Virus record (IMG/VR): IMGVR_UViG_3300030004_000009 | Coordinates: 32,001-96,000 of that record | Source of the DNA: a virus | Strand: one strand, 5' to 3' | Length of the DNA stretch: 64,000 nt | Shown here: in pieces, positions 1 through 25,000 of the stretch | Layout of the letters: every line of letters starts with the position of its first letter | Position numbering within the stretch: position 1 is the stretch's first letter | The notes under the pieces: model-generated | Databases searched by the model: none | What the model was told of the DNA's origin: nothing | The model's input: only the letters and a program-made list of their open reading frames with translations | Made by a program: the position numbers and the translations under genes

Positions 1-2
1 AG

Positions 3-6000: not shown

Positions 6001-6059
6001 GAGTTGCTTTTAATAAATTAACTAAATATAGAGTGGAAAAATCATCAAATAATTGTTAA
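3..6059 (+). CDS. Giant virion/ejection protein with SF1 (RecD/UvrD-like) helicase domain; probably 5'-truncated by the window edge
   Basis: Walker A GSSGTGKT (~1320-1343), Walker B FATDEFTH, LGDANQ (motif III), SLRSG (IV), EVQGGEY (V), TMLSRA (VI); directly upstream of the RNAP gene as in crAss-like phages. Confidence 0.75.
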   Translation: MWERYLSTEGLQRFININHLQKTIGRDLTEGERDNLFTTFNTNNIYTRLLTEGKYNLGNSDLNLHTINSIDDTNLRSAIDTVRNFNQTRIPSPLRGDNDHPESSKSILRDVYKTLNSEIENLDTVGTSNYLNADDSFTEMLDTQINAIKRIGALLNAANTSNPIINDFRANHRGLLSDDLRDKVLTILDNDDLGTLGNELNRVYRQVNYLKDLNEFNKNNTIARLLREDGFELSAKVQSLNDLAQDPDILKLIPSLGALQADQDINNFVSSYKSASDDSKLTALSKFAKIEENIYQDVQNLTDDDKKVLVNKSFRPINSSAKDFYDNISGDEPLNDSHRTIYLATIFGSSTINFYANYAGKYDSDAEAFTNLNKTPYIPFAKQESAVRVANLVINGDPTIIRMFLNAYSYDGSTDIVSDFSSPKDGNTSFDSSNLVAILGSSGTGKTTAVLYSIMNMIPDEDSNVMLLTPKNRQFNTLRGTLINGGYEKRLDDRSSTVREFINNLNLKYKDGSKYDVTKNDEILNGVDIDKKETGNAKIDFYTKFDTQVFDKLDLYDNKKLKSEIANLFSKTRLFATDEFTHLNPIDLCLITNLINDYNKTDIVLQDPSKRSSIVVLGDANQMGFLKDDGTRRDYTNVATTIISQPLLTSLRSGWDLINNTLVDLQRRTMEVKEISGVDPAALTTSEIIQKYRDQHLQLFNYQGVDGNIGMKSIKVDGNLKASDLSFITDNKSKTFKDKDGNDIPVKGKDIVYIINSDIDIPRAQALLREALGANWEGLADIEIYKPEEVQGGEYKYTIIDAKPRLTPNDPKSNDYDYSLVRVHEFLNTMLSRATEATLLIEDPSITNYIGLDNVAKGKATNQKKITDQVIAQVKKNKQIVLAAILGEDYVPQGAKPGSKIDTSAVPPPKPIADLYSNSFPIELTQDPLNPKSPAAKINTGIDLENKINKAKVKDIVAYTTYSTKADFDLISSIPSVADDIDTLKTEDMKKSHIENIIQSLKYYIVKGPIISENNVALKANFEQYLKQYDYNSPIFYIEAAKKEGTNVQYGRSEDYWQDPKPDQFLFSLRVKLPSKTGEQPLDITLGLLNSFTNLENKFKAAQNNESKVPLTKDDTDVNTFIKHVRTWLISGDRNSSKQGVWEEGKWRSRDLSAREWRSISETWDGRYNVNDPKTPPVYPTLKDLKAKYPDYHISEPQVIVSLFKDENGKLIVDDAGDPIQDFRGKSVVFMSEYKELQKVKNDDLLNIYLKQLKLFGTKDFLSLDKDGKEAYIKSKPDRIQVDGQFTLPYKPNMVQMIRLDTPRDSFLGFRQKFLAAIHDQESGGNVFDLFEKFDMSPYVKDRLAKSLLTIKQFIESTPDNKQWFKEEVLDEVNKTLDTKIEELRTHVLNTYGETGDAFQDNDSFKTLMLDPLKPFKRGVDEFSEYLNDLLDLNDPHTIFRRKFDTDINKINSAHVPDKKNSNPVQASDLQITLTPDKRVDFNQSILDLNLLNLFNKTKNLNFAAAIDKALIEFTKFPQGETRFDNYRLDKVLKDGQLENLVIASRAALKGYQISNMLADVKSTGHEFIVPFRGIQQAAYNIDFAKLLSLHDSENLPITESEVSALHINTNQRLQLFDELGDKWLTSKFGDFNNDLRKLTNTNDQYNFLQGINDKIDSLNEIERVVPSNEILSPGTKTTYQVSPNGIVAIDTVESEVKRGLIEQQDEFSKLTHDQITLENVSFNKNKAVFKAKVGDSEFKVTYDAKTGNIDPQRLDTETWQEKLQRFFPDLKTSAEINQATTDILSKVVKDTSEQVNPSKLLTIDSMKDELGHRLYNLLTPEQTQVLLPDTKTTDKDYYSNLMDSYVDNFVKDGKNWYTKVSDMAKTVMDNNRDSALGLDTEEPDPIEAEVKEESKVDKLNLLKKDVNSADNKAIEEFKLEAGKLFNNIPKEQQTTLRDWIKNYQLRHRLAIANKIVTGREFSLEQLDLKKDFTKFTDKQLSDEFQDKIEQDPDLYEQYRVAFNKLTKYRVEKSSNNC

Positions 6060-9000
6060 ATGGCTAGATGTCTAACTAATTTAAACGAAGAAACAAACCA
6101 AGGAGTACTTAATGATTTACTACGTGGTAGTGACTTTGCGAGTAATTTAAGAAATTATTATAGAGGTAATCTAGATCAATTACCGACTATAGACTCTTTA
6201 GTTAAAGAACTTAATGAAGATATATTACCTGCAATTATAGAAGGTAAACTTAACAAAGATTATGATTATAGTGACATAAAAGAAACTATAAATAATGAGT
6301 TAAACAGTGAAGCGATAAATCTAGCAATTGCACAATTAAAAGGTAATATGCGTAAATTTAACCTTACTGTTAGACCTATACTTCCTAAATTTGATATAGT
6401 AAGTTTACTTTTAGCAGATATAGATAAAAAAGAACAAGGTGATGTTGCTTCTACTACTCAAAAAGTAGTAGAAGCTTCTAAACTTAATGATGCAACTCCT
6501 TTAGATATAGCTACTGACACAAGTCTTAGTGAATATATACATGAGAATAATTATCAAAACTTAAAAGCTTATCGTTTAGATAGGTTTAAGGGTTCTTCAA
6601 GTATGGAGAAGATAACAGTTTCTAAGTTTATTACTAAAGGATTAATTGAAACAGCCTTTATAGATGTTAATAATAGAGTATTAGTAAATCAACTACAAGG
6701 TCCAGCTAAAGAAGGATATACAAATGATGTAGATACAAATATAAAAAACTATCGTATTAGTTTATTTAAAGACCTTATAGGTAGACTTGGTATTGAGGAA
6801 ACTGTTAAAGGTGAAACAGTCCCTCTTATTTATCGTGATGATCTTCTTAAGAAAGCTAACTTTGATAAAACTCTTAAAGATATAGCTAATAGAGCCACTA
6901 TTATAAAATATAATGGAGAACAACGATCACTCACTGAACCTAACCTACTATCTGAAATAACAGAGAAATTTAAAGATACATTAGATTCAAATCTTAAAGA
7001 AATTATTGATAACTTTAGTGATTATGTAATACTTAGTGATTTTAATAAACTCTTTAATTATTATGGAGAAGGTACTATTTCAGTTAATAAATTTAATCCT
7101 GACTTTGATCCTATCTTACGTAAGTATGAAACTAAAGACGCATTATCTGTTGATGCGTTTAATGTCTCGTGGGATGAAAAGATTCAGAATGGAGTAGAGC
7201 TATCTTCACCTTTTTATAAAACTGTAATTAATAACACAGCTATCTTAAATTATAACACAGGTGATGAAACTGGTAAATATCTTTACCCTACACTTGTAAC
7301 TTCTATCATGGCTCCTTATTTCAATCAAATTGATAGAAATGATGTAACTAATTCACTTAGACAGTTAATAATGGATAGGATTGGAGCACAAGGTATAGGT
7401 TATACTGAAAAAAATACATTATATACATTATATAAAAAGTTTTTTGAACGTGAAGGAGATGTACTTAATACTCCAGCTAAGAATGATAATACCACTGTCG
7501 CTTCATTTTACGAGACTATAAAAGACAATAGAGATCAAACTCTAATGCAACTTATAACTAAACCTATAAGTGAAATGTCTCCAAATAGAATAGCTGAAGC
7601 AGTTGAAGCTCCTAATGGTGATATAAGATTAAAAACAGCTGAGGCAAATAATAAAAGCAGTGTAGGTTTTACTAGTACTCGTTTCATTAATGATCATATT
7701 AATATGAGCAATGAAGATTTACAAAACTTCTTAAAGAAGTGGAATATATCTTTTATAAATGAAAAGGGTAAACCATCTACAGTTAACTACACAGGACAAA
7801 ATGGTATAGATTACGTATTAAAGAATACTAATAATCAAATAGTAGATATTGATACTATTCAACAACTATCTCAAGACTTATTTGGTTTTGATTATAAGAA
7901 TGACAAACGTCATGCTGAATTTTGGCAGGAAGTTCAATCTCTTAGTAGAAATGATGAACCTGTAGCATCTCCTTTTCTAACTTATATTAAAGATGCTTTA
8001 GATATAGTACAAGCTAAATCTAAATTAAATGATCCTGAATTTCAAACCTTTCTTCGTACTGAACAAGAAAAACAACGTAAAAAAGGTGGTGACATAGAGA
8101 CAAACTATAAACCAATTAATGATGCTATAAAAAAGGAAGGTGCTAAGTTCCCATTTAGTGATCCTTCAAACTATAAATTTGAACTTAATAATATCAATGC
8201 TACAGATATAGGTAAATTAATAGTTACAGCAGAAAATAATGCAACAGGTAACCAACGTAAATCAGTTGTTTCTACAGTTGATGGTACTTCATCTGCTGCA
8301 TTTACTAATTATACATATGCTGCTGCATTACAACAAAATTTTACTGCTCATAGAAGAACATTAAACTCTGCAATACGACCTGACATTGATAAATCACCAT
8401 TACATAATAATATTATTCTTAATGATGCTAACTTCTTAAAAGGTTTTCCTCTTAGAGGAGCAACTAAAGTAGGTGCTACTGTAAAGCCAGTAGGAAGTCA
8501 AACTCCACTTGAAACTTTACATTATGATATAAACTTAGGTTATTTAAGCATGTTACAACAAGGTATAGATGGTGGTCATATTCGTCCAACTTTTAATTTA
8601 TTCGTACCTGCTGATAAGAGTAATCAACCACTAGCTGAATTTGGCAATGAAGTTTTAATACCTTCACAAGGTAGAGTTAAACTTTTTGTTGATGATAATA
8701 ATCGTGCTCCATCATATGAACAGTCAATGGACTTATTATATAAGACTAATGGACAGTATTATAGAGCACAAGGACAAAGTATCCTTGATACTTGGGAACA
8801 AGTTTATCGTGTTTCAGGTCATGGTTCTGTATTTGAAAGTAATATAAAATCAAAAGGTAGTATTAGTAAACAACTTATCGCTCTTAATGACTTTCATAAA
8901 GATGGTTTTTGGAAAACAGGAACCTTTGAACATGGGCTTAAAGATCTAAATGCAGCTAGATTTTATGCTAATAAAGCAGGAGTTGTACTCACCAACTGGG

Positions 9001-12000
9001 TTCATTATATAAATGACACAAAGAGTTTTGGCCCTAAAACTAGACTTGAAATTAAAGGTGAATTAATAGATAACATCTCTCACTATGAAGGTAATCCTAA
9101 TAAAACATCTGAAAGTTTTAAAGTAAAATATAATAAACAGTTAGTTAACTTTGCGAATGACTTACGTGAGATTGGATTTACTTTTGATCCATTAGCTAGA
9201 GAAACAATTACTAGACTTTATCATAAATTAGGTGGTGAGTTTGGTAATAAAGCTAATATGTTTATTACTAGCAGTAACATAGAAGCCAAGAAGTTTAGTG
9301 ATATTCACCCAGCTATTATAAAGTATTTTTGGGATCATAACCTTCTCGAACAGAATTTAATGCACGCAAGTGTAGGAGATTCATCATTCTATAAAGGTAA
9401 TAATGAAAATACATCATGGTTAACTAATATTAAACGTAATGTTTGTTTTACAGCTACTATACGTCCTTTTTCATTAGGTCTTGAAACTGGAGTTGAAGAC
9501 CATACTCGTACAGCATTTGTTGATGATATGACTTCCATGTTTAAAGGTATACTTGGTGATAGTTCTCAAGTAGTTGATTGGGATGGTGCTTCACTTAAGA
9601 CCATGACTCAATGTCTTAAGACATGGAATTCTCTTAATGGTAAATTTAATGGTAATGGTGGTACAACTCATAAACCATTCATATCTCATTATGATCCTAC
9701 AACAGCACATTTTGGTATAACTAAATTTGCTGACTTTACCATGACTAATGACTTAATACGTCAAACTATAGGTTCAAATGTAGACTTAATGGAACTTCAT
9801 AAACAACTTTATGCTACTGATATATCAAATGTCGATATAACTAAATCTTGGAAAGATGGTGTTAATTTAAGTACACACAATGATGTTTATTATTACAAAC
9901 GTGGTATAGACTTTGAGACAGGTTTATATGGCACACTTCATAAGTTAGATTCTATTACATTCTTAGCTAAAGATATTGATGGTAAGTCTAAGTATATAGT
10001 TACGACACGTAATATGTCAATTGCACCTGATAAACCAGTATCTAAGCCAATGCAAATTAATACAATGTTTGACTTATGGCACATCTTAGGTGGTATTGAT
10101 TCAGTAGAACATACAGATTTAGAAACTCAATTTCATTATAGAGATGGTGATACTAAACTTTATCTTACTGGAAATTATAAATCAGCTGAAAAGTTACTTG
10201 AATATGAAAGTTATATCGGTAATAAAGGTGAAACTATAATACCAGAAAGTTATGTCAGTGGTAATGATAATGTAAAACGTGGCTATCAAGCTTATAAACA
10301 ACTGTTTAATGATAACGGATTAGTTAGTTCACATATTAATCTTATTGATAAATATACTAAACAACCTATTAACGAGAGTCAATTAGCTTTAGAAATAGGA
10401 CAACACGATATAAAGACTAAAGACCCTAAAGAGTTTATAACCATATTAAATCAATATAAAGATAATCTTCAAGACTTAGTAGAGTATGCTAATAAAGGAG
10501 AAAGTCAACTTTCACGACCTTATCAGAGGTTTAAAGGTAAGAACATCGATCGCATTACATTTGCAGGAGCTCAAAAGGTTGGACAGTTTAATATGAATAA
10601 TATTGAAACAGTTCACTTGAAAAAGCGTTCTGACTTCTTACAGGGTAAAGAAGATCCAGGAATACCAGGAGTTACTCGTTTAATAACTCATCAAGTTTCT
10701 AACTTTAATGCAGGTATACAGCTATCAGCTTTTCACGAAACTGATAATACAGTTGTAACTACACCAACTCAAATGCTTAATGGTCTTATATTTAACGCTA
10801 AGAGTCTTGGGAAAGTACAGCAAATGTATAGAGCTATTGGAAATATAGTTGATCAAGAGCTTACTTATATACTAAACCAAGAACAACATAATATTCCTGA
10901 ACTTGTAAGAGCTCTTAATACTCAACCTCCAGATGGTAGTAAAGACTCTAATGGTAACAAGTTAACACCTGGTAAGTGGTATGAACAGAATAGAGATAAA
11001 CTACTTGATATTTTTCATAATATAATGCAGAATAAAGTAGCAAAGGATGATAAAGATGAGTTTACTCTTGAAGGTTTGATTGTTAATATGTTTAATAGTA
11101 AAGACATGCCTTTTGACGATCCTCAAATCTTTCATTCAGCTATTGCAGAATTAACTAACTATCTTACTAAAACAGGTATTCGTACTAAGTTTGATGGTTT
11201 ATTTGCAGTTCTACATCCAGCTTCCGAATTTATGCAAGTTAGAGAAGTACAAGGTGGTTATATGCCAGTTAAGACTGATGAAGGTGGTTACACTACTATT
11301 AAGTTAGAACCAGGAGAGACAAGAGTTCTTCAACCTGCTGAATTTGCTGATTATAAAGCTCTTAATGAGCATTTGATAGAACATCATAATATAGATCCTA
11401 CTAACACACCAGAGTTTAAAGAATGGTTTAATGGTTCTAAAGTAGTTGATAAGGAAGGCAAACCTTTACTTGTATATCATGGATCACCTAATAAATTTGA
11501 TAAGTTTAATGACCTCCCTACATGGTTTACTTCTTCAAGAGAATCTGCACAAGCTTATTCTGCTGGAGAACATCCTGATTTAACTAAGAGTCAATACATA
11601 CAACTAATACATGAGTATGAAGAGAAATTAAAAACTAATCTATCTCCTCAAGAGAAACAAAGTACTGAAAAGGCATTAAAAGAGCTTACAGATCTACGAG
11701 ATAGTGGTGATGTACATGAAGCTTATCTTAATATACAAGATCCTACTAAAATAACTGCAGGTTATACTCCAGGTGAAACACATTATGTAGTAGATCACCC
11801 TAATCAAATTAAATCTCTTAATGACGATAGAAATGCTCTAGATAATGCAGAAAAAATAAGGAAACATGCTCAAACACATCAATACACTGAACCTCGTAAT
11901 CTTAAAGGACAACAAGTAACATTAAATTATGCTGATGGTACTAAACAAGCTCTTAGTTATGACGATGATAGTGAACAACAGTTAATACCTGAAGCTAGAG

Positions 12001-13724
12001 CATTAGACCTTATAAGAAGTAAGGTTGATGAATATAAAAAGCAACTTGATGATAGTTCTTACATTCAATTAAGTGATAAGGATAAAATTGCTGAACTTCA
12101 AACTAAACATAAACAGTTTTCTAATGATCTTGAGGAATTACGTACTATAAGGGAGAGTGATAATGAGTTATCTGGTTGGTCTCAACGTAGTGATAATAAT
12201 TATGAAGTATCTTCTAAAGGTGATGCAAGATTTAGTGCTTTAACTGCTAAGTTTAAACCTAAAACAATAATAGATGGTAAAGATGTAGGTGGTAGAACTA
12301 TAGAAAGTGTATATCAAACTGATATTAAAAGATCAGGTAAAGGTAGACCTCCTTCTAAAGATTCTATAGTTTATAATCCTTCATTAAAAACTTCACAGGA
12401 ACAGGAAGATTATTCATATTCTAAAGGTTATAAACCTTTATGGGATGAATGGGCTAAACAAAACCCTACTCTAATCAAAGAGTTACGTGATAAATCTAAA
12501 GGTAAAACTTTAACTGATCAGTTTGCTAATACAAGAGTTTCTCAAGCTAGAGCACTTAGTGACATATTAAACGAATCTAATAAACTAAAGCATCCTGAGA
12601 TTGCACATGTACTTGATAATTATGTTAAAGAGTTACAAGGGATATTAAAAACAAGTATTAAACGTGATGATAAAGAGCAAAGTATAGATGATATAAAACC
12701 TCAACAATCACCAGTAGGAGATCCTTATAAATTCTCTTATGAAAACTTTAGTCAAAGTAAGAAGTATCGTGATGGTAAAATAAAGCGATTAGAACGTGAT
12801 AAAACAGCAGAAGGAGTTAAACAGTTATTAATAGCTAAAGAACACGAATATCTTGATAAACTGAATAATGTAGGTTTACTTTATACTGGTAGATTACAGA
12901 AATTCTTAGATGAAGCTAGTAATGGTTATATTGGACCTAATGGTCAAGTATCTTATATACCACAATCTCTTCAGAATCCTGATCTATTTGAAAATGCTCA
13001 TAAGACACAAAATGCTAAAGTAGAAGTATCAAGGGCTGAATGTATTGCTCCAATAGTAGCAAGACAAAACTTCTTACTTCAAGAAGGTGATACTGTAGGT
13101 TCAATAACTAAAGACTTAATTAAGAAACGACTACTTAAAACACTTGATTATTTTAAAACTGATGCTGATGGCGTTATAATATCACAAAGTGGTAGAAAGA
13201 TATTCTTACATACTGGCTCAGAAGGTCCTAATAGTATTAGTATAGAAGAACATCCAAATGTAGGTGTTTATTTCACTAATGGTAAAAGCACTAAGTGGTT
13301 TACTAACGATTCAGGTGATAGATTGTTTCAAGTACCTACAGGAATGACTGTAAGTAATACTAATAATGAACTTCATATCTTCTTAAATAATAAATATCAA
13401 ATACAAGATAATCCTTTAATTCAAAATTTAAATAATGGTTTAGGTCGTCAATTACTTAGTACAGATAGTGGTAATATTAAAGATACTTATAATATTTTAA
13501 TCTTTGATAAGGATAGACAAGCTGCATATAATAAAGCAGTAATTGGTTTAGAAGATAGAGCACAGAAAATGTTTACTTCGTGGCAAGTTTATCTTGATAA
13601 ATTGATAGGCACACGTGTTCCAGGACAGCACTTTCAATCCTTTCAAGGTATGAAGATTGTAGGTTTTGCAGAAGGAAATCATATGCATGTACCAAACTCA
13701 GTTATAAAACTGAGTGGAGCGGAT
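6060..13724 (+). CDS. Virion RNA polymerase (single-chain two-barrel, crAss/phi14:2 gp66-like), exon 1
   Basis: Ends with RVPGQHFQSF...SGAD, the beta'-like barrel region up to the first Asp of the catalytic loop; spliced product reads GADFDID; about 3596 aa with exon 2. Confidence 0.88.
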
Positions 13725-14042
13725 TAACTAAGAAGTCAAAGTCCGCTTAAAACCTTGTGATATGCTGGAAACCCATGAAGGTGTAGAAACTACAAAGTAA
13801 CTAGTAATAGTAAGCTTGAATGTTTGAAAATTCTACATTATATGGCAATCAGCAGGCAGATTATCCTGAAAGACGGATTTTCGCCTCAGAGACTATCGAA
13901 ACAGCGTTAAGGCTAACGTAATGGAGTAGAGTAGGTGTCAAGTGACATCGAAGTGCAAGGCATTCGTAAGAATGATGATATAGTCCGGCCTCATATGAAA
14001 GTATGAGAGTTGTAATGGAAACGATTACAACGCAACAATTCG
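13725..14042 (+). mobile_element. Group I self-splicing intron (318 nt, no ORF) in the RNAP catalytic motif
   Basis: P1: exon GCGGAU pairs with intron GUCCGC (U-G at 5' splice site); P10: intron GUCAAA pairs with 3' exon UUUGAC; P (AUGCUGGAAA), Q (AAUCAGCAGG), R (UCAGAGACUA), S (GAUAUAGUCC); terminal G 14042; removal restores the frame. Confidence 0.93.
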
Positions 14043-17000
14043 TTTGACATCGACAAACAGAACGTTATATATCACTCAATTGATAATAATGGCATTCTAA
14101 CAGGTTGGCATCCAGCATTTGATTATAGTAGTAAAGAATCTTTACTAGAGAGCTTAAAATTACCAATTCCTTCTAAAAGGACTATAAGTGACTTTACGGC
14201 TGAAACTACTCCAACTGGTGATATTGTAGATCCATCTAAGTTAATTAAGTTTGGTGGAGATGAGTCTGGATCACATTTAGATCTTAATAATCCTTACGTA
14301 TTAAACGGTATATACTCCCTACTTGATAAAGATTATAGATTAGATGGAGAGAAACATCAAGCAATAGTACAGAAGTTATTAGAATATGAACAAGCTCCAA
14401 CAGCTTTAAATGGTGTTAAGAATTTTGCAGTATCAACTACGAATCAAGTTATTGAGAATCCTTCTAACTTCTTATATTTAGCTAATGGTGTTAGTACTGA
14501 TACTATAAAACAATTTTCAAGTAGAACTAATAAAGCAGAAATTGCTAATAACGATCGTAAAGAAAATCCAGCTGCAATTGCAAGAGCAAGGTATAATAAT
14601 ATGGTTGGTAAGACTGGTATTAGTGTAATGGCTTCTCAAATGAAGAACTTATCTGCTATTCAATACTCAACTAATAGTGCTCTTCGAGAAGTGAGTAATT
14701 TATTTGATAAACAGAAAGCTTATGAAGGTAAGTTAGAGAACTATAACTATCATCTTAACGCTATTCATAGTGTTGATGATCTTTACATAGGTCCGCATAA
14801 GAAAGAGCAATTAGAAACTGCTATTCAAATATTACGACAAAGGATTGAAGATATAAAACATGAGATTAATGTTAAAATAAATAATATAGGTGGTCCTTAT
14901 ATAACTTTACCTAATGTAAATTATCATATCTTTAGTGAAAAGTTTGAGAATGAAGATAGTCCTATTGTTACTTTACATTATAATTACGATACAGATAAGT
15001 TTGAGGCAGATAAGAGACTTAGTCATGCTAAGATAGCATCATCTTTTGATGTTGACTCTGCTGATTTTTATTCTCAACTTTTATCTTCTGCAACAGATAA
15101 TGCTAAAGAACTTGATTTAGGTAAATTAAACGCTACACCAGCAGTTATGACTATTTATCCTTCAAGAGCTCTTTTAAGTAAGTCATTTGAAGAGTCAGTT
15201 GATAATATGGTATCACCACTTACTGATATGTTAATTCGTAATGCAAGTAGTAACATCTATGATAAAAATACAACTGAAAATAGGATAAGTGATCTTCTTA
15301 ATAAAGTTGAACAAGCAATGTATGATGGTAAATCAGAAGCTTTATTAAGATTAAAACCTATTGCTATAAACGCTCTTGAAACTAATTATAAATTACGTTT
15401 AAATAGAGGTTTTATTACAGATTTAAATACAGGTAACATCTATGATATTGAGGAAATTAATAGATTTAAAGAATTATTCTTTAAACCTGCACAAACTGCT
15501 ACACTACTTGCTGGTTATCTAAGTATCAATCAAGGTATAAAAACTAATAGTTGGGACTTATATAACTTCGCTAATCGTTTACAAGATAAAATTAATGGTA
15601 TGTATATTACTAATAAGTATCAACCTACCTTTAACTTTAAGGACTTTTTAGACAGTTTAGCTAATAATGGTTCATATCATCAAAATCATATTAATCAGAC
15701 GTCACCTTTATTTAGAGCTTTAGGTCTTAACTTTAATCCTTTAAATATTTTAGCAACTAATGAACATTACGCTAAACAATTAAGTGCATTTAACTCTGCT
15801 AATACTATATTACGTGAATCTTCGTATAGAATTGATAGTATGTATCATTTTGTTGATAAGTTACGTGATATGGGTTATATAGGGCCTACAAGTAATATTA
15901 AAGAACAGGATTTTAATGAAGTTGAGAAATTTGTTGAAGCTAATATTATACATACTTTTCTCAAATCAGAAGATAATAACTCAAGTAATAATGATGAAAA
16001 ACCTATCTTCTATATAAAAGGTCGTGATGTTACTTTAACTACTAAAGAAGGTCGTAAAGAGTTTATAAACTGGATGCAAACTGACTTCTTACGTAATATA
16101 CAGGAGAATTCAATACTTAAGGGTAATCCTTTTACACAAGACTTACGACTTGATAATAAACAAGATTCTTTATTATTTAATAAAGTTGATTTTATGAAAC
16201 TTCAAATGGATACTACAAATGTGAAAACAAATGTAGAACAAGGTCCTTTTCGTGATGCTTATGTATCAGGTCTTAAAGAAGTATATGATAATAAATATAC
16301 AGATTTAAATGGTAATAATATCTTTAACGCTCTCTTTTGGTATAATCTAATACTTAATAAGAATAATATAACTAAAAATAGTTATGCGAAGTTACTAGGT
16401 GATGTTATGTGGGCTGATAATAAAGATCCAAATGTCTATTCTCGTTTATTTGAACTTAAAGGTAAAATAGGAAAGTCTAGTGATGTAGAACTTAATTTAG
16501 GTACTCCACAAAAGTTTTTCGTTAATGAAGCTGATACAGTAGGTACAGAAAGTGAAAACTTTTATAAATTAAGTATTGCAGGTATCCCATTCGATTTACG
16601 GAATCTTGCTTATTATTTTGAAGTTGGAACTACTCATAGATTACCTTTAGCAAGACGTGATGATTTTGATGACTTTTATAATGAACAACCTGAAGACTAT
16701 AGTAATGAAGAAACAGGTAATGTAGATGGTGGTGTTAATTTAGATAATCATTCATATGATTATAACGATAATAATGGTGACGACAATAACGATGATAATA
16801 CTGAAGAAGCTGCTAAGATACCACGTAACTATATGTATATTGATAGGTGGAAACAACTAGAAGTTCCTGGTACAAGAGTTGTAATTAGAGTTAATGGACA
16901 ATCTCAAGAGGAAAATATAAATGAATCTACGACTACTATGCCATTAAAAGATGGAAATTTTGAATTATCTAATAGTCTTAATTATAATCCATTTGTTAAA

Positions 17001-17168
17001 AAATCAGTTGAATTAAGACCTGATCAAAATGAAGCATTTAACTATTGGAAACTCGCTACTGATAATATACACAATTTCTTGTCACGACTTAGTGATACTA
17101 CAGATATACAAATAACACATAATGGTGTCACTGAAAAGTTTGATAAAGACAAAAATTATGACTGCTAA
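14043..17168 (+). CDS. Virion RNA polymerase, exon 2 (the 14601 ORF is an internal part)
   Basis: Begins FDIDKQNVIY in frame with ORF 14601..17168; contains VGKTGISVMA and LLSSATDNAKEL motifs. Confidence 0.88.
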   Translation, partial: FDIDKQNVIYHSIDNNGILTGWHPAFDYSSKESLLESLKLPIPSKRTISDFTAETTPTGDIVDPSKLIKFGGDESGSHLDLNNPYVLNGIYSLLDKDYRLDGEKHQAIVQKLLEYEQAPTALNGVKNFAVSTTNQVIENPSNFLYLANGVSTDTIKQFSSRTNKAEIANNDRKENPAAIARARYNNMVGKTGISVMASQMKNLSAIQYSTNSALREVSNLFDKQKAYEGKLENYNYHLNAIHSVDDLYIGPHKKEQLETAIQILRQRIEDIKHEINVKINNIGGPYITLPNVNYHIFSEKFENEDSPIVTLHYNYDTDKFEADKRLSHAKIASSFDVDSADFYSQLLSSATDNAKELDLGKLNATPAVMTIYPSRALLSKSFEESVDNMVSPLTDMLIRNASSNIYDKNTTENRISDLLNKVEQAMYDGKSEALLRLKPIAINALETNYKLRLNRGFITDLNTGNIYDIEEINRFKELFFKPAQTATLLAGYLSINQGIKTNSWDLYNFANRLQDKINGMYITNKYQPTFNFKDFLDSLANNGSYHQNHINQTSPLFRALGLNFNPLNILATNEHYAKQLSAFNSANTILRESSYRIDSMYHFVDKLRDMGYIGPTSNIKEQDFNEVEKFVEANIIHTFLKSEDNNSSNNDEKPIFYIKGRDVTLTTKEGRKEFINWMQTDFLRNIQENSILKGNPFTQDLRLDNKQDSLLFNKVDFMKLQMDTTNVKTNVEQGPFRDAYVSGLKEVYDNKYTDLNGNNIFNALFWYNLILNKNNITKNSYAKLLGDVMWADNKDPNVYSRLFELKGKIGKSSDVELNLGTPQKFFVNEADTVGTESENFYKLSIAGIPFDLRNLAYYFEVGTTHRLPLARRDDFDDFYNEQPEDYSNEETGNVDGGVNLDNHSYDYNDNNGDDNNDDNTEEAAKIPRNYMYIDRWKQLEVPGTRVVIRVNGQSQEENINESTTTMPLKDGNFELSNSLNYNPFVKKSVELRPDQNEAFNYWKLATDNIHNFLSRLSDTTDIQITHNGVTEKFDKDKNYDC

Positions 17169-17172
17169 CAAT

Positions 17173-17196
17173 AGGAGAGAGTTTAAACTCTCTCCT
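17173..17196. terminator. Perfect 24-bp palindrome/hairpin after the RNAP gene
   Basis: AGGAGAGAGTTTAAACTCTCTCCT followed by a short TTAT. Confidence 0.55.
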
Positions 17197-17209
17197 TTAT
17201 ACGAAAATT

Positions 17210-20200
17210 ATGAAAAGTAACTGTATAATTACTATTAAAATTGGTGATAAAGAAATACAATTAGATCCAGGAGCTAATATTAGTCAAGAAGATTTCAATG
17301 TACTTGCTAAAACAATGCCAGCTGATAAGTTAAGAGAGTTATATAGTGATCTTAAGAGTAATATTACTCTTGATGATATTTTAAAAAGTAATGATGCTAA
17401 TCTTATTAATGCTGGTAAAGAGTATTATCAAAGTTTAATTAATGACACAAAAGATAAGTTTTTAACTATTCTTAAAGCTATTCAACTTGAGAAAGATCCC
17501 GAAAGATTAAAAGAACTAATAACTTATGCTTCCTCTTTAGATCCTAAAGAGAAACTTACACATGGTAATTTTATGATTGATCCACAAGATAGTTATAAAA
17601 GTTCTCCATATAGTCCTGATCAAATAAAAAACCTAGTATTTAGTAAAGTTGGTGATAAAGTACAATTATTTAATGATTTATTAAAACTTCCAGGAATGGA
17701 GTCAGTTAAAATGTCTATAGCTTATGCATCTGAATGGAATAATGATCCTAAATTTACTAAAGTTGGTGGTGCTTATATAAGTCCTGATAACATAGTACAA
17801 ATTGTATTACCTCCTATACCTACACATATAATTAAAGGAGTTCCTAGTAAAGTTTTAACTATTAACCAAGAAAATATAACAAAGACTGCTAAAGCACAAG
17901 TACAAGATGTACTTATTCATGAGTTATTACATGCTGTATATTCAGAACTTTACCGTTCTAATTCTATTTTTAAAAAACAGATTGATAATATTTATGATAA
18001 GGCAATACAAGAGAAACCAGAATTAACTAAGAAATATGGTGAGAAAAAGAATGATGAAGGTAAACATGAGTTTATAGCATCTATATTTAACGATGGTACT
18101 TTACAAAACTTATTAACAGATATTCCAAGTGAAGATGGTAATGTGTCTCTATTTGATTCTTTTACTAATCTACTAAACAAAGATAAAAATGGTGTAGTTC
18201 CAGGCATTACGAAGCCAACACTATTACGTGATTTCATAAATATTATTAGTGCTAAGATACCTATAATAGGCTCTAAAGAACTATTAGATACTGTAGCTGC
18301 TAATGAAGCTATACAAGACGATCGTAATATCTTCTATATAGGTGGTTCAACCCCAATCGATGACGAAGAAAATATGTCACCTAATGATCAAACTGATACT
18401 AAGTATGGTAATAATAGAAAAGCTTTCTATGCAAATCAACGATTTAATGAGAAATGGGGCGATAACTCTTTTAAACGAGATAGTTACTTTAAAGGAACAG
18501 AAAGTGATCCTAAACCAGCTCGTCTAGATATTTTACGTCCTGATGATGTTATTATTATTCCTTGGGTTAATTATGTTAAAGCCACTCAAGTAAATGGAGT
18601 TAAAATACCAGGTTACTATCAAGAAGTAGGTGGTGTTATGAAAGAAATAGTTGGGAAAGATGGTAAACCAAAATTAGTACCTGTAATGAAAGGTGATAAA
18701 CTTGCCCCACCAGTTCCAATTATACGTGATGAAAATGGTAAAATACAAAAGACAAAAGAGGGTTATATTGTAGAAGAGCGAACACAAGCCTTTCCTGTTA
18801 TATATCCTAATATTAATAGTCAACATATTACTGTAGCTAAAACTACTCTAAAAATAAATGATGAATTTAGACCTATACCTATTAAAGGTAAATCAGATTC
18901 TAGTAGTGGATATAACACAATTTCATTTCCATACTCACTTATTAAAGGGGTACGAGAGTTAGATCGCTCATATTTTGATCATAATACTGATTATACAAAA
19001 CAACTTAATGATACTAAAGCTGAACTTACAAAAGTAGAAAAGTTAATAGCTAAATTAGATCCAAAGAATACTATTAATAATGAGAAGTTATTTGATGACC
19101 AACAATTCTTAACAAATAGAGTTAAGAAATTACCTGAATTAGTTCAGAAAGCTGCCGATATAAAAGCTCAAATTAAAGACTTATACAAGACTTATATTTT
19201 TGAACATAATGAAGGTGGTAAAACTTATATGAATGTCGCAAAACATGAATATATAGGTTATAGACCAAATGTAGATGTAACTAATCATGAATTTAGAGAT
19301 TCACCTGCTTTTAAATTATGGAAACATCCAACTCTAAAAACAATAGATGGTAAACCTCAATGGTATGTAGCTCCTAATACAAATATTTTTGATGTTTTTT
19401 GGGACGGTGATGTAGCAAAAGACTATGCTAGACACTCTGAACAGTTATCAAATGCTATATCGGCAGGTGACCTTGTAAGAAGTAAGGGTGATGCAGAATT
19501 TCCTATTGCAGGTACAGATATAATGCAAAAAGTTAAACTTAATCGATGGTACACTGTAGTTAAACGAGTTGCTAATGGAATACAAGTAGCAACTCAAGAA
19601 GGTCAAGGTATGATTATTCCATTTAATATGGTTAATGCATATGCTAAAAATAAACGTACTAACGATTATCAATCTATGTTAAGTGACTATAAACAACAAG
19701 TTATAGACTTTAACGATGATGCATTCATTAATATTAACGGTAAGACTACATACTCATCTGAAATAAAAGGTAAAAAGCTTATTAATCCACCAATTCAAAG
19801 GACTAATAGTGATGGACAACCTATAGAAACAGAAGAAGAATCAAGTGTACGTTTTGATAATAACCTAGACCTTATAAAAAGTAGAATACAGCCAGGAGAA
19901 TCTTTTGTACGTATTTCTAAACGTTATACTAATGACTCAGGTAAAACAGTTACTTATCCACTTAATGGTTTAGTTCTTGCTAAAACTGATGATGCTCTCA
20001 TAGTGTTTACAGCAGAAGACTTAAGATCTAGTACACACGATCCAGTTACTATAATACAAACAATAAAATATGATTCTAGATTAACACCTGAAAGTGGTTT
20101 AGAAATCACGCATGTAATGGAGAATACTGCTCATGCCAGACGTGCATATGAAGAGTTTGCAGCTGAACGGGGTAAATATGAAACTAATAAGCAAACTGCT

Positions 20201-22087
20201 AATTTTGAAGCAAAAGAAGGTGGTGGTTATACAATGCTTAATGATCCTAGGGATAATCCACATAACATAAGGCAACAATATGATTTTTATGAAGCTACTA
20301 CTGATGATGGTAGAATAGATGGTAAGATGTTAAAAAGACTTGGTGAAAGTGGAGGTATTATTGATATTAAAGATCCTAGATTTAACATGATAGGTAACAA
20401 TGGCACTAGAATACCTATATATAGGAAAGTAATGAGAGTGCTTGATGATGGAACAGTTGTTATAGCATCACGAGCTAATAAAGATATACAAGTTAATGAT
20501 AACTTTACACGTAAAGCTGGTGATTATTTTGCAAGTTATGTACGTCCTGAAAATATAGCAAGAATAGGTCTTAATATAGGAAAACTATCAAAAGATCCTA
20601 AAACACAAGAAATTCATTCAGATATGAATGAAGAACTTCTAAATAGACGTAAATGGTTATTTGAACGTACTAAAGCTGATCGTGATTTTAATAATTTCAC
20701 TTTTGCTAAAACTATGCAAGATGTTAAAGGACTTAATAGTAAACCTATAAATTTAGAACAAAATTATTGGCGCTTTATTCCTTTAACTAACATAATATTA
20801 GATCCTCTTACAAAAGAACAAATGAATGAGAATGAAAAGGAAGGTAGAGACCGTAATTACGATCCACGTCCTACTAAGTTCTTAGATAAAAACTTTAATG
20901 AGGTAGAACCTGATAAAGCTGCTTACGTTAAAGCTACAATGCATAAGAATAGTGAAGATTTGTATTATGTACATCGTGGTGTAATGACTAAGTCTACATT
21001 TATAAATCCTAGACTTGCAATAGTAGATACACAATTTGGAAAGAGATTTAGACCTGAACTTATAAAGGCATTAAAACCTGGCGATTGGGTTCAATATCGT
21101 ACTTCAAGTGGAGCCCCATTTGATGCAGTAATAGAGCGTACTGAAGGTGGTAATATCTATACTTTAAATACAGATATGACGACAAGTCAAGTAACTCCTA
21201 GTAAGGTTACTGCAATTAGAATGTCATATCGTAATGATATACCAAGTGGATTTAAACGTAGTAGAGATCTTGAAACACTTTTAAAACAGAAAGCTCAAAT
21301 TGATGATGCAAACTCTTCTATTAAACAATCAAGAGATAACAATGGAACACAAAGTAAAGATACACCTTTCTCACTTGATGCACAATACAAATCACCTAAA
21401 TCTTCAATTCGCGCATTACGAACAATTGGAAATAGGCTTCAAGAGTTAAATCCAGAAGTACAACTTAATTATGTTGATAATCAAGACCTACAAGAACTTC
21501 AAAAAACAACTAATTATGACTACTCTAACTCTCGTGCTTTCGTCTTAAAAGGTCAAGTGTATATAAATACTGATAAAGCTTCAATAAGTGATCAGATACA
21601 TGAATATGCTCATTTGTTCCTTAATTCATTAAAATATGAAAATCCTAAATTATATAGCGCTATAGTGGGCGTAACTAAGAATCACTCTTTATTTGATAAT
21701 ATAGCTATCGACTATTCACATCTTGAAGGTGACGATCTCAATGAAGAAGCTTTTGTAACAATATTAGGTGAATATTTACATGGTAAACTTCTATCTAAAG
21801 ACCAGCAAAATATGGATAGTAATCAAGACTTATTGTTAGGTTTTGCTCAATATACAAAAGACAAACTTACTCAAGCACTTAATAAAGAAGTGACATCAAT
21901 ATATGATATAGACGCTAAAGAAATCTTAACACTACCTTGGGAAGATGTAATTAATCTTGTAGGTGATCATGTAATGAATAATAAAATAACTGATGTTTAT
22001 GATCAGTATCCTATATCAGATACTAAAGATGTTAACCTTTTAAAGAATGAGTTACGAGACAAAGGTTATTTAACTCAACAATGTTAA
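17210..22087 (+). CDS. Giant virion protein with two zincin-like metalloprotease (HExxH) domains
   Basis: VLIHELLHA...HEFIA near the N-terminus and QIHEYAHLF...NEEAFV near the C-terminus; MPTase-PolyVal-like context. Confidence 0.7.
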   Translation: MKSNCIITIKIGDKEIQLDPGANISQEDFNVLAKTMPADKLRELYSDLKSNITLDDILKSNDANLINAGKEYYQSLINDTKDKFLTILKAIQLEKDPERLKELITYASSLDPKEKLTHGNFMIDPQDSYKSSPYSPDQIKNLVFSKVGDKVQLFNDLLKLPGMESVKMSIAYASEWNNDPKFTKVGGAYISPDNIVQIVLPPIPTHIIKGVPSKVLTINQENITKTAKAQVQDVLIHELLHAVYSELYRSNSIFKKQIDNIYDKAIQEKPELTKKYGEKKNDEGKHEFIASIFNDGTLQNLLTDIPSEDGNVSLFDSFTNLLNKDKNGVVPGITKPTLLRDFINIISAKIPIIGSKELLDTVAANEAIQDDRNIFYIGGSTPIDDEENMSPNDQTDTKYGNNRKAFYANQRFNEKWGDNSFKRDSYFKGTESDPKPARLDILRPDDVIIIPWVNYVKATQVNGVKIPGYYQEVGGVMKEIVGKDGKPKLVPVMKGDKLAPPVPIIRDENGKIQKTKEGYIVEERTQAFPVIYPNINSQHITVAKTTLKINDEFRPIPIKGKSDSSSGYNTISFPYSLIKGVRELDRSYFDHNTDYTKQLNDTKAELTKVEKLIAKLDPKNTINNEKLFDDQQFLTNRVKKLPELVQKAADIKAQIKDLYKTYIFEHNEGGKTYMNVAKHEYIGYRPNVDVTNHEFRDSPAFKLWKHPTLKTIDGKPQWYVAPNTNIFDVFWDGDVAKDYARHSEQLSNAISAGDLVRSKGDAEFPIAGTDIMQKVKLNRWYTVVKRVANGIQVATQEGQGMIIPFNMVNAYAKNKRTNDYQSMLSDYKQQVIDFNDDAFININGKTTYSSEIKGKKLINPPIQRTNSDGQPIETEEESSVRFDNNLDLIKSRIQPGESFVRISKRYTNDSGKTVTYPLNGLVLAKTDDALIVFTAEDLRSSTHDPVTIIQTIKYDSRLTPESGLEITHVMENTAHARRAYEEFAAERGKYETNKQTANFEAKEGGGYTMLNDPRDNPHNIRQQYDFYEATTDDGRIDGKMLKRLGESGGIIDIKDPRFNMIGNNGTRIPIYRKVMRVLDDGTVVIASRANKDIQVNDNFTRKAGDYFASYVRPENIARIGLNIGKLSKDPKTQEIHSDMNEELLNRRKWLFERTKADRDFNNFTFAKTMQDVKGLNSKPINLEQNYWRFIPLTNIILDPLTKEQMNENEKEGRDRNYDPRPTKFLDKNFNEVEPDKAAYVKATMHKNSEDLYYVHRGVMTKSTFINPRLAIVDTQFGKRFRPELIKALKPGDWVQYRTSSGAPFDAVIERTEGGNIYTLNTDMTTSQVTPSKVTAIRMSYRNDIPSGFKRSRDLETLLKQKAQIDDANSSIKQSRDNNGTQSKDTPFSLDAQYKSPKSSIRALRTIGNRLQELNPEVQLNYVDNQDLQELQKTTNYDYSNSRAFVLKGQVYINTDKASISDQIHEYAHLFLNSLKYENPKLYSAIVGVTKNHSLFDNIAIDYSHLEGDDLNEEAFVTILGEYLHGKLLSKDQQNMDSNQDLLLGFAQYTKDKLTQALNKEVTSIYDIDAKEILTLPWEDVINLVGDHVMNNKITDVYDQYPISDTKDVNLLKNELRDKGYLTQQC

Positions 22088-22089
22088 TT

Positions 22090-25000
22090 ATGGATTGCGC
22101 ATTTAGAATAAAATTAAACGGACAGTTACATGAATTTAACTCTGAAGAGGAGTTAAATTCATTTTTACGTGAAAATAGAAGAACACTTAGTTCTCAATTA
22201 TTATCAGATAAAGTGTTATTTAGTAACGATAGAAGTTATCAACAACAGATATATCAAGAACTAAGAGAACGTTCTAATCTTGTTAACTATAAAGACGAAG
22301 ATCATAGTTATAGTGTAATTGATAGAGAAACGGGAAAGGTAGTATCACTAACACCTGTAACTAAAATCTTAAGTAAAGAAGAGAGTGAAAAACGTTTTGG
22401 AATGGAGATAATAAGGCCATTTAACTTAGAGAATTGGCAAGCTAAAGCATATGCAGATATGATGAAAGCAGTTAACCCTGATGGTACTCCTAGGTATACT
22501 CAACAACAAGCTTTAGATATTCTACAGAAACAAATAAAATCTTGGCAAACTCAAACATTACTTGGTACTTCTTGGCATACAATAGCTCAACAGTTCTTTA
22601 ATGGTAACATCACAGAAAGTAGGGATATTATACAATTATTCCCTGAATTAACAGGTTTAACTAGTCACGTACTTAATAAATACATTGATGAACTTAAGAA
22701 GTTTAAAGCTAGTTTAGATCTAAAATATCCTAATGCTTTATATGCAACTGAAATTAGAACATTTGATATAAAAGCTAAAATAGCAGGAACTATGGATCTA
22801 GTTGTAGTTGATGAATTAGGTAAACAACATATCTATGATTACAAGACTTCAATAAAGAATGAGAATGAATGGGGTAAAGATAAAATAAAGAGTAACAATT
22901 ATCAACTTATGTTTTATCGTCAGATACAACGACGTGCAGGTTATGATGTACAAAGTACTCATATACTTCCAGTTCTTCTTAAAGATATTGATTACAATAC
23001 AAATACTATTTATGACTTTGATATAGGACAAGACTCCAATCGTCAATTTAGGGAAACTGATCCTGAAATGCAGAATGTTAAGAAGATAATGCCTTATACA
23101 GTTGACACAAGAGGTATAGTTGATAATGCGAATGTCCATAAGTTTATGAAAGAGACATTTAACTTTGAACAGAAAAAAACAGTACAGGGTAGTAAGTCAG
23201 TGGATGACGAATATGATAATATGCTTGCACATAGTAAGTCCCCAACTGCTAAATTATGGTATTATCATCCATACAATGCTAATAATACTAGTTACCCAAT
23301 TAGTAAGGAACTACCTGTTAATGAAATTAAAGCTGAGATAGCAAGAGTTCTTAAAGATTGGGAAAATGAAAACTCTACACTCCCAGAAAGGATGGGAACA
23401 TTCATTAATGACGCTAAAAAGGTAATACAGGATGGTGGTGGTTATGAAGATGTAAAATGGAGTAATTTTACAACTAAAAATACTAAAGCTGATAACGATA
23501 CAATACTTAAAGCAAAATCTTTACTTCATAAATATATAAATGATCCATTATGGCAAGTGGTAAAAAGTGATCCAGCAGCAGATCTTAATATCTTACAAAT
23601 AGAACACACAGGAACAAATGAAGTTGATTTTATAGCTCTTAGTAGTTCTGATCTTAATGCAGCACCAGAACTTGTTGTTAAAGGTGCTACTACAGTACTT
23701 GGTAATTTTCTATCTGACACTAAAGCTAAATCTATAGTTGGTATTCATAAAGTAACAAATGGTGATGTTGAGCTTTTAAAAGTCTATAGTTTCATTAAAG
23801 ACAATAAAAGTAGTTTTATTGATAAAAATATAGGTTCAATTAAAGCCATTAATATTATGGAAGGTAACCTTATAGGTAATGAGAAGATGCAAATGTTAGG
23901 ACAGCTTGAAACATGGTATAATGCACTTAGAAAGCAAATTGATCCAAACTTAGGTTTACCTAAGAATGACTGGCTTCCTAAACAACTTGATCCAACTCGT
24001 GCTCTTATTACTCGTATGTCAGAACTTTTAACTGATAAGAGGTGGACTAGTATAACAAGTAATATTACAAAGACTAAAGGTATACTTGATAGATTAGGTA
24101 ATCTTACATATGCAGACATTAATGAACGAAGAAAACTACTTGGTGAAATGTCTGAAATGCTACGTGGTTATGTTGGTAACAATACTAAAGTATTAGGAGC
24201 TGTAGAGTATAGAGATATTGAAAGGTGTTTAGAGTTAGCTGGTCAATCTCTTATTGAATTAGAAAGATTGGATATATGGCATGAACGTGATGTAGCTGTG
24301 TTAGGTAATATTATAGGATCTAACAACACTCTTATGGGAACACCTAATTTAGCACAACATCCTTTGCAAACAGCTACAGTTCAAGTTGTTAATAGAGCAA
24401 TGAGTGATGCTCGTTCTGCATTTTTGGAGTTTCTTAATAAATCTGGTGGATGGCGTGATACTTTAGATAAGTTTTATACTAAAAGTTCTACTACTTTTCA
24501 AATTAAAGCTGTAGGCTATAACTATCCAGCTTGGGAAAAGCTTATAGATACAGATAACATGAGATTTAAAGATGTTAATGATCCTAAATCAAATTTAGCT
24601 GATTTCCAAAAACAAACTATAACTACTATTCTTAATCAAATTAATACTATACGTACTAATAAAATGTTAGAAAGTGGTAGAAATCAAGATTATGTTGATA
24701 ATTTTTTATTATCAGAGGAATCTCGTAATATACCTCTTTTAAACGCTTCTTTACTTTCTTCATTTAAAGGTAGAAATCTAAGTCAATTTATAGATGGTGT
24801 GTATCGTGATATACTTAATCCTAATAATTTTCTTAAGAATGATACAAAGTCAAAAGATGCAATGCGTACTCAAAATGAAATGTTTAATGGATTTAATATT
24901 AGTGATTTAGATCTTGATACAAGACAACAAAAAGTAGACGAAGCAAAAAAAGGTGATTTTGAAACTGATATAGAACTAGTATTTTCTACTTATATGATGG

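Follow-up and report, generated by a model that had tools for sequence, protein, structure and literature searches.

In a 64,000-nucleotide stretch of viral DNA (the window, bases 32001-96000 of the 176.7-kb IMG/VR virus record IMGVR_UViG_3300030004_000009; G+C about 30%, genome 86% complete), four giant proteins encoded one after another carry cysteines at their facing ends. Judged by homology, the phage is crAss-like and these proteins, P1 to P4, are its RNA-polymerase cargo module, in the order X protein, virion RNA polymerase (R), Z protein and Y protein. Both cysteines of the pair are present at 48 of 48 module junctions in 26 crAss-like genomes, with zero violations; gene fusion removes both partners of the junction that it abolishes; and the outer ends of the module lack cysteine. 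On these grounds it is strongly supported that each C-terminal cysteine acts with the N-terminal one of the protein that follows it, in a constant head-to-tail arrangement. An original prediction from the letters of the window is thus strongly supported in its core and partly as a whole. The arrangement suggests that the paired terminal cysteines are an end-to-end tether, probably a disulfide.

Cysteines at the ends of P1 to P4

P1 contains two cysteines in total, one of which is its last residue (codon 6054-6056). The spliced P2 has five, including Cys 4 (codon 6069-6071) and the last residue (codon 17163-17165), and P3 just two in 1625 amino acids (aa), Cys 5 (17222-17224) and the last residue (22082-22084). 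P4 has three, including Cys 3 (22096-22098), and none near its C-terminus. All of the termini quoted in the original prediction, the cysteine-free end of P4 among them, are correct in the sequence, and so is its remark that cysteine is very rare in these proteins: it accounts for 0.115% of the residues in the cargo block compared with 1.11% in the 145 other open reading frames (ORFs) of the genome. Those other ORFs have a C-terminal cysteine in 2 of 145 cases and a cysteine within residues 1-6 in 4 of 145, a background so low that, together with the depletion across the block, it excludes chance.

The neighbouring genes provide an internal negative control. Two proteins of 1658 and 615 aa, encoded between the tail genes and P1 (genome 21473-28296), have no cysteine at all, and neither their own junction nor the one between the 615-aa protein and P1 has a cysteine on either side. 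Avoidance of cysteine therefore reaches beyond the chained module, to presumed channel-forming cargo.

The pairs are not a feature of the DNA. Both TGT and TGC are in use as junction cysteine codons, and while the P1/P2 and P3/P4 genes abut or nearly so, a spacer of 41 nucleotides (nt) separates P2 from P3. The mixed codons and the spacer show that the terminal cysteines are not a DNA motif. A hairpin-like pattern that the original prediction had seen at the N-termini of P3 and P4 is also present. It follows the cysteine in both proteins, and in the P4 family it generalises to Cys, an alternation of aromatic and aliphatic residues, and then Asn-Gly.

Conservation and gene fusion among crAss-like phages

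A count of terminal versus internal cysteines across crAss-like cargo operons, which had been put forward as a check, shows that the terminal cysteines are conserved. At the 48 junctions the C-side cysteine lies no more than 13 residues from the end, usually in the last 1-4, and the N-side cysteine is at position 3-5 except in one case, where it is residue 10. The N-terminus of the X protein, the outer end of the module, has no cysteine in 12 of 12 genomes examined.

Close relatives share the pattern of the window. Five database homologues of P3 (44-64% identity) all have a cysteine at position 3-5 and another as the last residue. The syntenic contigs that encode them (L004, L006 and L007) contain the same four genes with the same six terminal cysteines, and the intron-less polymerases of the first two, 3257 and 3296 aa long, have the two terminal cysteines and no others. 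MT835470, although only about 25% identical in P4, retains the four-protein pattern and all three junction pairs.

The rule extends to the model phages, whose modules consist of three proteins. In crAss001, gp47 (2341 aa) has a single cysteine three residues from its end, the polymerase gp50 has Cys 5 and a cysteine nine residues from its end, and gp49 has a single cysteine at position 5. The counterparts in Cellulophaga phage phi14:2 are gp65, gp66 and gp67, which carry the GenBank tags gp078, gp077 and gp076: the upstream protein (tag gp078, 1797 aa) has one cysteine, its last residue; the polymerase (tag gp077, 2180 aa), gp66 being the solved virion RNA polymerase, has only Cys 3 and Cys 2179; and the downstream protein (tag gp076, 1421 aa) has only Cys 3. 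Phages cr128_1, cr85_1 and DAC15 show the same junction pattern. In these three and in crAss001 the X gene lies on the strand opposite the polymerase and gp49-like genes, so neither translational coupling nor a DNA motif can explain the pattern. In phi14:2 all three genes are collinear, unlike in the other Steigviridae examined. The claim that the chain runs in gene order consequently has to be qualified; the order belongs to the proteins and not to the operon or the adjacency of their genes.

Larger samples point the same way. Eighty IMG/VR loci recovered by an alignment search with the polymerase catalytic region are close crAss001 relatives only and serve counts, not diversity; among them, complete polymerases have both terminal cysteines in 76 of 76 cases, and complete gp49-like proteins have the N-terminal cysteine and lack a C-terminal one in 74 of 74. 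For a broader view of the Y family, HMMER, queried with the last 584 aa of P4, gave 499 relatives, and we took the 122 full-length representatives, from clusters at 50% identity, among the best 150. A cysteine is present within the first 8 residues in 115 of the 122 (mostly at position 3 or 4) and at position 9-10 in 3 more. Just one representative has a cysteine in its last 10 residues, and for 42 the whole protein contains a single cysteine. The four apparent exceptions, which lack any N-terminal cysteine, proved on inspection of their contigs to be artefacts of gene calling or assembly. In two the start had been called too late, and an in-frame ATG further upstream yields Met-x-x-Cys; the other two are broken at runs of N, and their true N-terminal fragment carries the cysteine. 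In all four the neighbouring upstream protein has a C-terminal cysteine.

More distant contexts also follow the junction rule, in eight of eight cases (L104-L111). L104 and L108 are additional four-protein chains; in one distant four-protein chain the middle proteins, of 1170 and 1729 aa, each have the two terminal cysteines and no others. A middle protein of 459 aa in L104 has both terminal cysteines and no detectable similarity to P3, and by visual comparison its short C-terminal tail resembles that of P3. The middle protein of L106 was considered as an extra Z protein and rejected, since HMMER identifies it as a compact polymerase; we claim no new break point there. A search of the viral contig collection for loci related through P3 alone returned zero relatives, and tblastn of P3 and P4 against phage records gave very distant matches only.

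Gene fusions are the most informative evidence on which cysteine belongs with which. R and Y are fused in the Intestiviridae (p-crAssphage gp44, sequence BK010471; crAss002 gp33, NC_055828; cr8_1 gp93), and there the remaining terminal cysteines are only those at the C-end of X and at position 3-5 of the fusion protein; p-crAssphage has no cysteine near the fusion point. X and R are fused in the Suoliviridae and in Flavobacterium phage Fpv1 (genomes Fpv1, cr109_1, cr7_1, cr50_1 and cr118_1), and there only two terminal cysteines remain, one at the C-terminal end of the fusion protein and the other at residue 3-4 of its gp49-like partner. In Fpv1 gp33 a single cysteine is found in 4401 aa, at position 4400. 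At each fused junction both partner cysteines are gone, and the pair at the other junction is retained. The loss of exactly one pair on fusion fits head-to-tail pairing; it does not fit ring closure, a shared four-cysteine site or independent anchoring. No longer, fused relatives of P4 itself were recovered by a homologue search, which was word-based and is weak evidence.

The fused forms keep the proteins of the module and their N-to-C order and link them by a peptide bond, without junction cysteines, whereas here the genes are separate and each boundary has its cysteine pair. The rule explains why fused and split versions of the module interchange so freely in evolution. It also predicts true start codons. 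In crAss002 (L096, 17088-17186) the annotated start of gp33 lies upstream of an internal Met-Ser-Cys that matches the p-crAssphage start, and the annotation is probably 32 codons too early; several metagenomic gene calls were corrected in the same way.

A candidate tether and its alternatives

Our preferred reading, to which we give somewhat better than even credence, is a head-to-tail chain, most likely held by disulfides, whose members are packaged together 1:1, threaded out unfolded and released in the host cytoplasm. Each C-terminal cysteine would bond, most likely as a disulfide, with the cysteine at position 3-5 of the next protein inside the assembled particle, and P1 to P4 would become one linear thread of four proteins, with about 9,950 residues in all and a mass of about 1.1 MDa. 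Because the links would lie at the extreme ends, the thread would be unbranched, which would allow 1:1 co-packaging and passage as an unfolded chain through portal and tail. Depletion of internal cysteines would block wrong, knot-forming links, and the reducing host cytoplasm would open the links and free the separate enzymes. The placement of the cysteines at the ends and the purge of internal ones make sense if a thread must pass unfolded through portal and tail. The chemistry of the bond, the time of its formation and its purpose are what we infer here.

Published work on crAss001 is compatible with such a thread. Its virions contain gp47, gp49 and gp50, the cargo is thought to exit partly unfolded from N to C, and the tail shows disulfides, in the hub-ring (PMC10172136), so that crassvirus particles can hold such bonds. 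The phi14:2 trio is annotated as structural from tandem mass spectrometry in its GenBank record. It is tempting to extend the proposal to all crAss-like phages, which might inject the polymerase module as one disulfide-stitched thread, P1 first and each protein pulling the next, until reduction in the host cuts it into active enzymes. This wider version is a real possibility that we hold tentatively and stop short of favouring.

Several observations weigh against a disulfide thread. The gut hosts are strictly anaerobic, and conditions in the gut lumen are strongly reducing, which makes the timing of disulfide formation problematic. The disulfides in the crAss001 tail presumably come from virions that had been handled in air. 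Neither thioredoxin nor glutaredoxin was found in searches of the genome, at its 86% completeness, nor was an Erv1/Alr-type sulfhydryl oxidase, a search that is uninformative given that control genomes were also without a match. That P1 to P4 are packaged and injected we infer only from homology with the module proteins of phi14:2 and crAss001, which have been found in virions by mass spectrometry. The position of the cysteines is also not absolute: the C-side cysteine is not always the last residue, and the N-side cysteine at position 10 belongs to a Y protein that has no earlier one. Lastly, p-crAssphage and crAss002 encode small cargo proteins with a lone cysteine near the C-terminus and no obvious N-terminal partner, which indicates that not every terminal cysteine fits the chain.

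The proteins in question are p-crAssphage (L014) gp47 and gp48 and crAss002 gp30, smaller cargo or membrane proteins encoded upstream of the polymerase module. Their lone cysteine stands 2-8 residues from the C-terminus, twice in the context Arg-Cys-Gly-Gly, and may represent a second kind of link.

Structure prediction was too uncertain to place the cysteines. Co-folding of P3 1380-1625 with P4 1-330, from shallow alignments, gave a median score of 0.33 compared with 0.17 for one control, below the margin required, and so speaks neither for binding nor against it. AlphaFold2 models of the separate pieces had a mean predicted local distance difference test score (pLDDT) of 59 for the C-terminal 246 aa of P3, with the last 70 or so residues below 50, and of 57 for the N-terminal 330 aa of P4, where a hairpin at residues 5-16 is followed by a helix.

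One alternative is that each cysteine pair coordinates a metal ion (Zn, Fe or Cu), or a small cluster, and in this way keeps neighbouring subunits together, whether in the virion or in the polymerase complex when it is active. The 48-junction rule would suit any link between two partners, a metal would need no oxidant in an anaerobic host, and the terminal cysteines of crAss001 and phi14:2, exactly four in each, could in principle form one tetrahedral site. However, each terminus offers one cysteine with no conserved His, Cys, Asp or Glu adjoining it, and two-ligand sites bind weakly; moreover, the fused lineages have two terminal cysteines and the window six, so a single Cys4 site is not a general solution. 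We consider a metal bridge unlikely. The same features led us to reject a zinc ribbon or Cys4 site as an identity for the termini.

Slightly less probable still is that the terminal cysteines are not paired with one another. They could each be anchored separately, whether to a cysteine of the capsid, portal or scaffold, to a cofactor or to a second copy of the protein itself, or could serve as redox sensors of the injected enzymes. The lone near-C-terminal cysteines in other cargo of p-crAssphage and crAss002 speak for this explanation, but it leaves three regularities unaccounted for: the cysteine-less N-terminus of the first protein (12 of 12 genomes), the cysteine-less C-terminus of the last (121 of 122 representatives), and the joint loss of a junction pair on fusion with the other pair kept.

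Very improbable, in our judgement, is an arrangement in which each middle protein forms a ring through a bond between its own two terminal cysteines, leaving the first and last proteins to pair with each other. The N- and C-terminal counts balance under this scheme too, in three- and four-protein genomes alike. The fused lineages separate the two arrangements. Where R is fused to Y, the cysteines left are those at the C-terminus of X and the N-terminus of R, and where X is fused to R, those at the C-terminus of R and the N-terminus of Y. With ring closure these conserved cysteines would be orphans, yet they are partners under head-to-tail pairing, the order in which the gene fusions also run. 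The weakest alternative, that the pattern arises by chance or follows from nucleotide signals where genes meet, such as stop/start overlap or ribosome sites, might draw on the abutting P1/P2 and P3/P4 genes but is effectively refuted by the survey, given the two codons, the P2-P3 spacer, the X gene on the other strand in crAss001-like phages, the equally tight junctions upstream of P1 without cysteine, and a background of 1-3% per terminus against 48 of 48 junctions.

Known uses of a terminal cysteine were also considered and rejected. For a split intein or trans-splicing there is no room, as the C-side cysteine is last or nearly last and the N-side cysteine follows only 1-3 residues (8 in one case), and there are no Hint or intein Pfam matches. 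A lipobox or an Ntn-hydrolase nucleophile does not fit either: the three families with an N-terminal cysteine are unrelated in fold, their leader is 1-3 residues long, and no fitting domains are found.

The logic of a reducible disulfide chain has precedent outside phages. Diphtheria toxin and the clostridial neurotoxins cross a membrane unfolded as disulfide-linked chains that are freed by cytosolic reduction. The likeness lies in the proposed logic, a single inter-chain disulfide passing through a narrow channel and opened by a reducing cytoplasm. The proteins themselves are unrelated, and the toxin chains derive from one nicked precursor with a bond that is not end-to-end, whereas here separate gene products would be joined tail-to-head.

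In the ejectosomes of podoviruses (T7 gp14, gp15 and gp16; P22 gp7, gp16 and gp20; the virion RNA polymerase of N4 with gp51 and gp52), large internal proteins also exit through portal and tail and leave before or with the DNA, and N4 likewise injects a giant RNA polymerase. Those ejection proteins assemble by non-covalent stacking, and to our knowledge, and in the literature that we searched, no terminal-cysteine tether has been described for them. Disulfides in virions that are reduced on entry are familiar from polyomavirus VP1 and the core proteins of vaccinia. Like the bonds in the crAss001 tail, they occur in particles made in a reducing cytoplasm, as the proposed bonds would, but all of these stabilise shells or tails. 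Vaccinia needs its own oxidase pathway for this, and none was found in the present genome, with an oxidase search that had no positive control.

Within the crAss-like phages, the tether has an analogue in fusion itself. All three module proteins are fused into one polyprotein in some phages (Drobysheva et al., bioRxiv 10.1101/2020.03.07.982082), and a reducible tether would be the split-gene equivalent of that three-way polyprotein. Joining by a cysteine pair would be reversible, whereas the fused join would need a protease.

Neither the crAss001 structure paper (PMC10172136) nor the preprint on the phi14:2 polymerase (bioRxiv 10.1101/2020.03.07.982082) mentions the terminal cysteines, and our full-text literature searches returned no description of such a rule or tether, in keeping with the original prediction, which knew of none. 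The crAss001 structure paper raises the question of how crAss phages pack and inject megadaltons of cargo, RNA polymerase included, and holds that interactions between the cargo proteins probably govern the order in which they are extruded (PMC10172136).

If the proposed tether is real, it would be a new viral means of setting the stoichiometry of injected proteins and the order in which they enter. In the wider version it would also stand in reversibly for a polyprotein and amount to a new principle by which viruses deliver proteins in sequence. No group of viruses is more abundant in the human gut than the crAss-like phages. To this the window contributes a clean four-protein chain, in which an inserted protein with zincin motifs obeys the rule at both ends. 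The rule itself, cysteine-free giants with one cysteine per facing end, offers a concrete and cheap test in two cultured phages.

Gene content of the window and the polymerase intron

The cargo block lies on the plus strand and extends upstream beyond the start of the window (Table 1). Further upstream in the genome it includes a gene for the crassvirus muzzle protein (genome 12500-16789; Pfam crAss_MUZ, 125 bits against a cut-off of 27), which is followed by the cysteine-free 1658-aa and 615-aa proteins and then by P1 to P4. The true start of P1 is 3,699 nt upstream of the window, and the protein has a weak AAA_19 helicase-type match. For P4 the most likely start is the one tabulated, which gives Met-Asp-Cys; translation might instead begin from an in-frame ATG at 22081.

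Table 1. Features of the polymerase cargo module in the window
Feature	Window position	Strand	Remarks
P1 (X protein)	1..6059, frame 3..6059	+	C-terminal 2018 codons; gene = 3252 aa
P2 exon 1 (virion RNA polymerase R)	6060..13724	+	N-terminal 2555 aa
Group I intron in P2 gene	13725..14042	+	Rfam RF00028; splice sites read from sequence
P2 exon 2	14043..17168	+	1041 aa; spliced P2 ~3596 aa
P3 (Z protein)	17210..22087	+	1625 aa; two H-E-x-x-H motifs
P4 (Y protein, gp49-like)	22090..26541	+	1483 aa; N-terminal PD-(D/E)XK-type nuclease region

In its layout the module resembles those of phi14:2 and crAss001: a giant two-barrel RNA polymerase with a D-F-D-x-D motif has a large partner upstream and a gp49-like partner downstream, the whole lies downstream of the muzzle-protein gene, and the terminal-cysteine rule is the same. 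It differs from them in the fourth protein, P3, which stands between the polymerase and the gp49-like protein with both terminal cysteines, and in the polymerase, which is much larger, has its gene interrupted by a group I intron and contains an ART-PolyVal domain. This ADP-ribosyltransferase domain occupies residues 1797-1923 of P2 (window 11448-11828; 43.5 bits against a cut-off of 31.2). As a giant protein with several unrelated enzymatic domains, virion-associated by homology, P2 counts as a polyvalent protein in the sense of Iyer et al. 2017.

The intron scores 66 bits with the group I model (gathering threshold 50, E 5e-16) and is located precisely within the catalytic D-F-D-x-D motif of the polymerase. 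A U precedes the 5' splice site and a G the 3' site, and the first intron codon is an in-frame TAA that closes the reading frame of exon 1. Splicing joins Gly-Ala-Asp at the end of exon 1 to Phe-Asp-Ile-Asp-Lys of exon 2 and so restores the catalytic motif as D-F-D-I-D; by BLAST, the end of exon 1 matches residues 1437-1483 of crAss001 gp50. In MT835470 about 1 kb of intervening sequence interrupts the catalytic motif at this same position (L011, ~13573-14610), and the polymerase genes of L004, L006 and L007 are all intron-less.

P3 may be a double zincin-type metalloprotease. Its two H-E-x-x-H motifs, at residues 237-241 (window 17918-17932) and 1464-1468 (window 21599-21613), are both invariant; no match for the protein was found among Pfam and PHROG families. 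Other crAss-like phages are reported to have their zincin domain in the protein encoded upstream of the polymerase. P4 shows homology to crAss001 gp49 (E 4e-8), and its tblastn matches in cr128_1 and cr85_1 land in genes annotated as 'putative RNA-polymerase subunit'.

The spacer between P2 and P3 contains a perfect, G+C-rich hairpin of 8-10 bp followed by a run of T (window 17174-17195). Hairpins of the same shape and other sequence occur in the corresponding spacers of L004, L006 and L007, with a folding energy of -12 to -16 kcal/mol. A terminator is one possible role for the element, and a site of processing between the polymerase gene and P3 is another. The window translates cleanly with the standard bacterial code; among the relatives, stop-codon recoding is seen in the late block, where L104 and L111 read TGA as Trp, and L109, cr109_1 and cr7_1 read TAG as Gln.

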